Position numbers and translations under genes: made by a program. This document shows, one piece after another, positions 43,088 to 43,760 of a stretch of DNA of 64,000 nucleotides (position 1 is its first letter; each line of letters opens with the position of its first letter). Under the pieces are notes generated by a model. The model had not been told where the DNA came from and did not search any database. It saw nothing but the letters and a program-made list of their open reading frames with translations. This DNA comes from Escherichia coli (GTDB taxonomy: Bacteria; Pseudomonadota; Gammaproteobacteria; Enterobacterales; Enterobacteriaceae). Where the stretch lies: NCBI RefSeq assembly GCF_030013595.1, contig NZ_CP122768.1, one strand, 5' to 3'.

Positions 43088-43118
43088 AAAATAAAAAAGC
43101 CACCTATTAGAAGGTGGC
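43088..43118 (-). terminator. Intrinsic terminator of the moron gene, located inside the tail operon
   Basis: Minus strand: GCCACCTattagAAGGTGGC followed by ttttttatttt. Confidence 0.7.
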
Positions 43119-43138
43119 CTTGTAATGAATTTTATTAA

Positions 43139-43669
43139 TTAGCGAGTCAGAAACAACGAATCTTTATACTTTTGCTGTTGTTCATTTAAATACTTAGCTG
43201 TTTCATCGCTGGCAAATGGAAATATTACCGTATTTTTAGGCATGGTAATTTCTTTTTTGTCCAGCGTCAGAGTAAACATAGGAACATACTGAGCAGAGTA
43301 ACGCACCGCAGAAACGAGCTCTAGTTTAGACTCTTCAATAACACTTAAATTATCCTGGCTAACTTTCTCTTCATCTTTTTTCTTTGACGCATTTAAAGTT
43401 TTTATTACTTTATTTAATTTCTCCTGAAAATCCTCCTTAAAGTTTTCAGGATTGCCGTCGACAACAAGAATCTGTTCACCCTGATTATCTGGAAAAATAA
43501 TCTTTGCACTTATCAATTTATTTTCTTTATAAACATCACCAAGTTTTATGGCTCCTCCAGATAACTGAATAATATGTTCATCTTTAAAGGAGATGTTGCC
43601 AGAGATTATGAGAGATGAAAAAATAGCCGCTGCTCCAAGAATTACACTTGCTGTGATATAGCCTTTCAT
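43139..43669 (-). CDS. Moron: membrane-anchored or secreted Lys/Glu-rich protein of unknown function
   Basis: 176-aa ORF MKGYITASVILGAAAIFSSLIISGNISF... (N-terminal hydrophobic helix), strongly AT-rich, own terminator; inserted between tape-measure and DNA-circulation genes. Confidence 0.65.
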   Translation of the reverse strand: MKGYITASVILGAAAIFSSLIISGNISFKDEHIIQLSGGAIKLGDVYKENKLISAKIIFPDNQGEQILVVDGNPENFKEDFQEKLNKVIKTLNASKKKDEEKVSQDNLSVIEESKLELVSAVRYSAQYVPMFTLTLDKKEITMPKNTVIFPFASDETAKYLNEQQQKYKDSLFLTR

Positions 43670-43760
43670 TTTTCGCCTATTAACATTTTTCTAAATGTGC
43701 ATTAATTCTATCACTCTATTTATGACTTACAACCAGCAATACCTGTGAGGGGAATCCTGG

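Follow-up and report, generated by a model that had tools for sequence, protein, structure and literature searches.

Temperate phages change their hosts mainly by way of morons, most of whose products are uncharacterised. The window, by which is meant the whole stretch of 64,000 nucleotides of Escherichia coli DNA that was analysed, contains a short AT-rich segment between two tail genes of a prophage. The locus raises the question of whether this segment is such a moron or a genuine tail gene and, if a moron, how it is transcribed and what its product does. An earlier note on this DNA had proposed the former. The comparison with related phages and prophages makes us highly confident that the cassette is a moron, i.e. 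an accessory unit of transcription that is complete in itself and lodged among the late (tail) genes.

The cassette and its prophage

The locus, and the end of the prophage beside icd, consist of the following parts.

43761-45593, minus strand: tape-measure gene (Mu gp42 type, 611 codons), the upstream flank, with an in-frame stop at 44826-44828
43761-43870, minus strand: last ~110 nt of the tape-measure gene, within the variable block; two sequence types are known
43670-43760, minus strand: AT-rich spacer or leader of 91 nt, read from the sequence, from the tape-measure stop (43761-43763) to the cargo ATG
43705-43732, minus strand: sigma-70-type promoter-like site, TTGTAA-16 nt-TG-n-TAGAAT (extended -10), 9 of 12 matches, with the TG
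43139-43669, minus strand: cargo gene, 176 aa, phrog_5485; an intact reading frame with an N-terminal hydrophobic helix (residues 3-22) and a predicted exported alpha/beta body
43096-43121, minus strand: intrinsic-terminator hairpin by folding, 10 pairs, 6-nt loop, -15.6 kcal/mol; inner arms 43099-43105 and 43112-43118
43088-43098, minus strand: terminator T-tract TTTTTTATTTT (T6-A-T4), at which identity among all alleles resumes
43075-43087, minus strand: Shine-Dalgarno sequence (SD) CGGAG (43083-43087) and ATG (43075-43077) of the DNA-circulation gene, from the sequence
41749-43077, minus strand: DNA-circulation gene (Mu gp43/N type), the downstream flank; 1329 nt in the RefSeq annotation of the same gene
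56354-57562: IS4-family transposase, beyond the end of prophage homology
57605-58519: tyrosine recombinase, adjoining icd
58633-59883: icd, the neighbour of the prophage

The GC content is 0.32-0.36 across 43100-43800, whereas it is 0.52-0.61 in the flanking tail genes. The 673 nt from 43088 to 43760 hold the GC minimum of the prophage late region (mean 0.541, standard deviation 0.050), and a GC content as low as this is reached in just 3.3% of the 673-nt windows of the 64 kb. The decrease in GC extends into the final ~110 nt of the tape-measure gene. The other such windows lie in further AT-rich islands, defined by 673-nt windows below 0.40 GC and situated outside the tail operon at about 7800-9700, 18100-19200 and 21800-34600.

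The elements that the earlier note had listed were recovered. The windowed GC content bears out the AT-rich segment at 43088-43760 (0.339 compared to 0.541 for the late region). The 176-aa reading frame with an N-terminal anchor or signal and a Lys/Glu-rich body is present at 43139-43669, the arms of the terminator lie at 43099-43118, just before the SD of the next tail gene, and the AT-rich leader does contain a promoter-like site (43732..43705), the match of which, taken alone, is at chance level. The SD of the cargo gene is weak (AGGCG, 5 nt before the ATG).

The tail module of the window is 97% identical to that of the Shigella and E. coli phages SfV, SfI, SfII, SKA5 and vB_EcoM-689R6. The SfV-type phages to which the module is matched combine an HK97-type head with a Mu-type contractile tail. 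In RefSeq, a closely related and more complete prophage of E. coli is annotated with the e14 gene names ymfQ, ymfR, ymfL, pinE and stfP. The element that hosts the cassette is an SfV/e14-family prophage. Its homology to the complete relative ends at 56023, ahead of the IS4-family transposase, the tyrosine recombinase and icd; what is left of the prophage is e14-like and occupies the attachment site at icd.

The Q antiterminator, holin and endolysin genes of the complete relative have no counterpart anywhere in the 64-kb window, and the Q, late-promoter and lysis region is absent from the prophage. Furthermore, the in-frame stop in the tape-measure gene is codon 256 of 611 and divides the gene into reading frames of 255 and 339 aa; the 611-codon gene of the relatives is uninterrupted. 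Because it is truncated, lacks Q, holin and endolysin, and carries this nonsense codon, the prophage of the window is a decayed remnant, unable to make virions. As in e14 and Mu, the tail-fibre genes have a serine recombinase gene (Pin-type invertase, 35304-35894) next to them, and the adjacent segment at 36-37 kb matches the relative only piecewise, which is consistent with an invertible or exchanged fibre segment.

Alleles of the joint

SfV, SfI and SfII match both flanks of the cassette but lack about 620 bp at the joint (a span of 4381 bp compared to 5001 bp). In SfII the joint measures 18-60 nt, with 18 annotated nt plus a terminator between the two tail genes. The alleles in E. coli were sampled from 60 spread records out of 1106 matching ones, both flanks being found in 49. 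The site is empty in about 30 of these 49 copies, or about 60% (a span of 2381 bp compared to 3001 bp; empty allele L023), and is occupied by the cassette gene in nine. Three copies have instead a 148-aa OB-fold/TM protein with an N-terminal anchor, encoded on the opposite strand, and three a 170-aa SKA5-type secreted protein. A 125-aa PH-domain protein, a 225-aa lipoprotein and an internally deleted cassette gene occur in one copy each. Among complete genomes, the cassette gene is found in 169 of the 1098 that have the module (about 15%), which corresponds to 169 of 5426 complete E. coli genomes (about 3%).

The alternative cargos, at least four in number, are related neither to the cassette gene nor to each other. 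All cargo segments are AT-rich (0.31-0.41 GC), and export signals are present in all but one of the five cargo types. The OB-fold cargo has a match (1.5e-49) to phrog_8545, of which the label, 'superinfection exclusion Sie-like', is an annotation. This protein resembles the cargo of the window in its position at the same joint, its N-terminal hydrophobic segment and a body predicted to be exported, but it is unrelated in sequence and fold and is encoded on the opposite strand. As empty, cassette and unrelated-cargo alleles occur at one joint, the joint is a hot spot for cargo, where at least five small genes take each other's place.

These alleles support the earlier note's reading of the segment as a moron, by way of relatives without the insert, unrelated alternative cargos and a distinct GC content. 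The note had asked for a comparison with related prophages that lack the insert and had named a homologue of typical GC content, conserved at this position in all related phages, as the mark of a genuine tail gene. What the comparison found is that the flanking tail genes are adjacent in SfV, SfI, SfII and about 30 of the 49 copies, and that the homologues, where present, are always AT-rich. In terms of the Hendrix/Juhala description of morons, the flanks are adjacent in relatives, the composition is divergent, and a factor-independent terminator lies downstream, though empty sites carry one too. The empty sites, the AT-rich homologues, the unrelated cargos and the occurrence of distant members at other accessory positions are the behaviour of a moron and not of a tail gene. 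A structural or assembly gene of the Mu-type tail module was considered and rejected, the gene being absent from SfV, SfI, SfII and most E. coli copies and replaced elsewhere by unrelated genes.

In comparison with the empty allele L023, the divergent block extends from ~43095 to ~43870. It starts in the terminator stem and ends ~110 nt inside the tape-measure gene. These last ~110 nt of the gene are 75-77% identical to L023, compared to 95-100% further in (100% from 43870 on), and 97-100% identical to the allele with the OB-fold cargo (L019). A repeat search at the borders found no target-site duplication and no terminal inverted or direct repeats marking them. As the borders are free of direct and inverted repeats, the sequences point to inter-phage recombination rather than transposition as the probable way in which the cargos are exchanged. 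Transposition as the origin is unlikely, there being neither a target-site duplication nor terminal inverted repeats.

Two further alleles were observed. A 10-nt direct repeat, ATCCTGGCTA, is present at 43352-43361 in the cargo gene and at 43754-43763 across the tape-measure stop codon, and its copies coincide with the end points of the internally deleted allele of E. coli 23CRST027 (L022). In that allele the tape-measure gene is fused to the 3' half of the cargo gene, which looks like a microhomology deletion. In a diverged prophage (L025, 7637-8330, and L026) two extra small reading frames follow the family member at the same joint, one for a Cys-rich protein of 119 aa and one for a protein of 83 aa whose hydrophobic helix is C-terminal; cargo of more than one gene is thus possible at the hot spot.

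Close parallels are the Z/fun and old-tin hot spots of P2 (Rousset et al. 2022, as summarised in bioRxiv 10.1101/2024.10.15.618418). In both cases conserved tail-related genes of a temperate myovirus enclose a fixed joint, which holds different AT-rich accessory genes in different lineages. The present site differs in the phage group (HK97-type head, Mu-type tail), in the joint itself and in the single small cargos, none of which matches a PADLOC defence model. A limited literature search returned no prior description of a moron site between the tape-measure and DNA-circulation genes in the SfV-type phage group.

Predicted transcription of the cassette

The unit is closed by the hairpin and T-tract, 1 nt before the SD of the DNA-circulation gene. 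In all same-strand alleles a GC hairpin and T6-7 precede AT-n-T-n-(C/T)GGAG, which leads up to the ATG of the DNA-circulation gene. The terminator is found in the empty allele, in the alleles with the cassette gene, the PH-domain protein, the lipoprotein and the SKA5-type protein, and in diverged orthologues (51-59% identity), the stems being allele-specific (-11 to -21 kcal/mol on folding). The alleles of the site all become alike again precisely at the T-tract, which therefore marks the right-hand recombination joint. The 'own terminator' of the earlier note is thus right for the stem sequence but not for the feature, as the empty and the other same-strand alleles also have one. By comparison of the alleles, a terminator is a constant of the site, present with or without cargo.

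Empty sites (L023, 1179-1238; SfII, L001, 2588-2638) have an AT-rich spacer (60 nt, 33% GC) that contains the hairpin and T-tract. It could be what remains of a lost cargo, or else belong intrinsically to the operon. One IMG/VR copy (L075) departs from the others right after the T-tract, reading GGCTTTTTT up to the point of departure and GTGCACAGAAAACCCCC... beyond it, which suggests a further insertion at the same joint. A search of Rfam returned sub-threshold matches only, to attenuator leaders, and these were caused by the cassette terminator.

The earlier note had also pointed out that the terminator would interrupt read-through of the late operon into the baseplate genes unless antiterminated. 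For intact relatives this concern has an answer in the form of a Q-type antiterminator gene. An antitermination protein gene is annotated in the intact relative ECONIH4, and Q is described for SfV-type phages (PMC3851460). We infer that Q would carry the polymerase through the site terminator in intact relatives. In the window the matter is moot, as the Q, late-promoter and lysis region is missing.

The promoter-like site owes its standing to comparison and not to its match score. Three such sites were found in the scanned 2 kb compared to 3.5 expected, so that a single match is not above chance. However, both hexamers and the spacer are invariant in all ~65 E. coli-type copies (the window and the IMG/VR loci), whereas variation is seen at seven other positions in the 100 nt upstream. 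A TTGnnA -35 element is present at the homologous place in most of the diverged orthologues, and one orthologue with 59% identity (L097) has a near-consensus TTGTCA-16-TATAAT. A cargo on the opposite strand needs a promoter of its own, and we count this as comparative support as well. The cassette promoter is thus a prediction that the comparison favours. In E. coli, AT-rich DNA is a common target of silencing by H-NS, which counts against expression of the cassette.

In the lysogen, the cargo would be transcribed from this sigma-70 promoter, TTGTAA-16-TGnTAGAAT, and the terminator would prevent this transcription from reaching the baseplate genes. When intact relatives grow lytically, Q-modified polymerase would read through both the cassette and the terminator. 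In this particular genome the predicted promoter would be the only plausible source of transcription, because the prophage is a remnant that lacks the Q and lysis genes and has a nonsense codon in its tape-measure gene.

The cargo protein, its family and its possible roles

The cargo protein matches phrog_5485 (PHROGs v4, no annotated function) at 1.5e-107, residues 1-176 being aligned to a profile of 176 positions. It has a single hydrophobic segment (Kyte-Doolittle 19-residue maximum of 2.11, centred on residue 14), and its body contains 21 Lys, 14 Glu and 10 Asp residues but neither Cys nor Trp. An AlphaFold2 model computed from an alignment of 53 sequences has a pLDDT of 90.5, with a helix at residues 3-22 and an alpha/beta body to which no relative is known; it was used in place of a model from 14 close sequences, which had a pLDDT of 64. 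As the sole hydrophobic segment is N-terminal, the body is probably exported, by means of either a membrane anchor or a cleaved signal. The protein would be inserted with its N terminus in and its C terminus out, or be secreted, and in both cases the body would be in the periplasm.

The cargo protein has no match in NCBIfam, in PADLOC-DB 2.0 (no family at E <= 1) or in a sequence-profile search of the PDB, and Pfam has none for it or for the 53 aligned family members. DUF5105 is a label carried by one family member in the AlphaFold database and was rejected, since neither the protein nor the 53 members match DUF5105 of Pfam. The exact sequence is WP_282869802.1 (E. coli), which is called 'hypothetical protein' in all public sources, and the literature search found no paper mentioning WP_000679479. 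A tblastn search with the protein of 50,697 INPHARED phage records gave no match; the family is therefore known from prophages and metagenomes only. An exhaustive search collected 61 library proteins at E <= 0.001, about 45 of which are full-length, ~165-195 aa long and as little as ~20% identical. The hosts, judged by structure matches, are Enterobacterales, Vibrionaceae, Aeromonas, Pseudomonas, Acinetobacter and Shewanella. The dN/dS ratio is 0.07-0.22 for pairs with 80-98.5% nucleotide identity and 0.28 among E. coli alleles, three near-identical pairs (1-3 differences) being uninformative. The cargo gene is real and under purifying selection.

The family has been associated with this joint for a long time. 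All 80 IMG/VR relatives with at least 51% identity (70 near-identical and 10 at 51-59%) lie between the tape-measure and DNA-circulation genes wherever the flanks exist. The same joint is occupied in Leclercia prophage copies and in two members, with 38% and 33% identity. The cargo is 53-55% identical where the tail proteins are 68-88% identical, and 33-38% identical where these are 43-87% identical; this divergence in step with that of the tail genes indicates long co-residence. Orthologues at the site always have a low GC content (0.35-0.42, compared to 0.51-0.57), and because this holds in diverged lineages too, the AT-richness is not a sign of recent arrival. The sequences thus point to an old polymorphic resident of the tail module, repeatedly lost or replaced, rather than a recent import. 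Distant members of the family occur directly after the Q antiterminator of a lambdoid prophage (L016), inside the baseplate module of an unrelated myovirus (L012) and as a single gene beside a resolvase (L014). In Lelliottia amnigena (L008, 7800-8570) an intact member is found by itself beside icd, preceded by no more than the final ~100 nt of a tape-measure gene. Its promoter region and hairpin are intact and its T-tract is degraded; the rest of the prophage is gone.

The persistence of the family beside the tape-measure gene across diverged modules could mean that its role is tied to the tail or the infection cycle of the phage itself. The cargo might accordingly be an accessory protein of the lytic cycle, made mainly by late-operon read-through and helping in some hosts with tail function, genome delivery or the timing of lysis or release; being dispensable, it would be absent from some relatives. 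The gene shares the strand of the late operon in which it lies, no terminator separates it from the tape-measure gene, its orthologues at 33-59% identity stay beside the tape-measure gene and diverge as the tail genes do, and variation in the cargo region goes along with variation at the 3' end of the tape-measure gene. The same 3' end is found, however, in the OB-fold allele, so that the co-variation is not specific to this gene. SfV, SfI and SfII are viable without the gene, the site accepts unrelated cargos, one of them on the opposite strand, distant family members reside outside tail modules, and purifying selection maintains the gene in remnants that cannot make virions. We regard a helper of the lytic cycle as unlikely.

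The moron of phage HK97 that encodes gp15, the best-studied cassette of this design, offers a different model. It is likewise a single small gene between tail genes of a late operon, next to the tape-measure gene and absent in relatives; its product is a membrane protein, as that of the cargo gene may be, and according to the annotation and sequence of the HK97 record it has a hairpin and T-tract 12 nt before the start of the tape-measure gene. Gp15 is reported to be a superinfection exclusion protein, with experimental proof of its activity, in the title of Cumby et al. 2012 (cited in PMC11364771 and PMC10884400). It is a protein of 62 aa encoded upstream of the tape-measure gene, whereas the cargo has 176 aa with a large domain that is predicted to be exported, and is encoded downstream. 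The two proteins are not related by hhalign (probability 0.2%), and neither PADLOC, nor fold comparison, nor the comparison with gp15 links the cargo protein in sequence or fold to any known exclusion protein.

By analogy with this design, the cargo would protect the lysogen from superinfecting phages at the envelope stage, blocking either the passage of the tail tip and tape-measure protein or the entry of DNA. We tentatively place envelope-stage exclusion first among the possible roles, although in itself it is less probable than not, because four of the five cargos have export signals, one alternative cargo has a Sie-like label, and the arrangement is that of the HK97 gp15 moron. A second copy of the module is present in 2 of 9 genomes with the gene, compared to 4 of 30 with an empty site; this is no depletion, and the numbers are small. 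The complete explanation, in which a moron is transcribed as described above and its product has the predicted topology and acts on the envelope in one way or another, is in our view reasonably probable.

An action on the envelope need not be directed against phages. Lambda Bor and Lom are examples of envelope conversion factors that benefit the host, and the cargo could be a lysogenic-conversion factor of this kind, changing the host envelope with an effect, for example, on how well stress, serum or host defences are withstood, or on adhesion. The architecture and the export signal would be the same as for an exclusion protein, and the description 'hypothetical protein' in all sources favours neither over the other. 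The retention of the gene in the decayed Lelliottia prophage by icd and in the remnant of the window fits a benefit to the host. On the other hand, the protein has no similarity to a known virulence or fitness factor, and both its tight and long tie to one tail-module joint and the Sie-like alternative cargo lean towards a function directed at phages. A conversion factor unrelated to phages is therefore a rather doubtful candidate, and it ranks second. It is followed by the helper of the phage's own cycle and, last, by an orphan immunity-type protein, anchored in the periplasm and neutralising a colicin or a contact-dependent or T6SS effector of competitors. The latter would suit a small exported protein that is carried on mobile elements, has no enzyme motifs and in one context is a single gene beside a resolvase; nevertheless, we think it most improbable.

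A more far-reaching reading joins these observations. The cargo may be a dedicated exclusion factor, anchored in the inner membrane with a periplasmic domain, that has co-evolved with the Mu-type tail module and blocks the passage of the tape-measure protein or tail tip. It would be kept beside the tape-measure gene, the C-terminal end of which varies with the cargo region, and its AT-richness would be selected. The T-tract and SD would form a fixed landing pad, at which temperate myoviruses of the Enterobacterales swap small, mostly exported cargos. We offer this combination as a speculation and would rather doubt that it holds in all its parts. If it were true, the site would be a source of new exclusion proteins.

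The cargo of the window is an uncharacterised member of a well-conserved, structurally novel and probably exported protein family that is distributed across the Gammaproteobacteria. The useful outcome of the analysis is the site itself, a joint with precise bounds, the tape-measure 3' end and the T-tract, in a type of prophage that is very common in E. coli and Shigella. The site is also a clean natural case for the question of why late-operon terminators persist even where there is no cargo. Its five cargos, four with export signals and one with an exclusion label, constitute a short and testable list of candidates for phage exclusion or lysogenic conversion.
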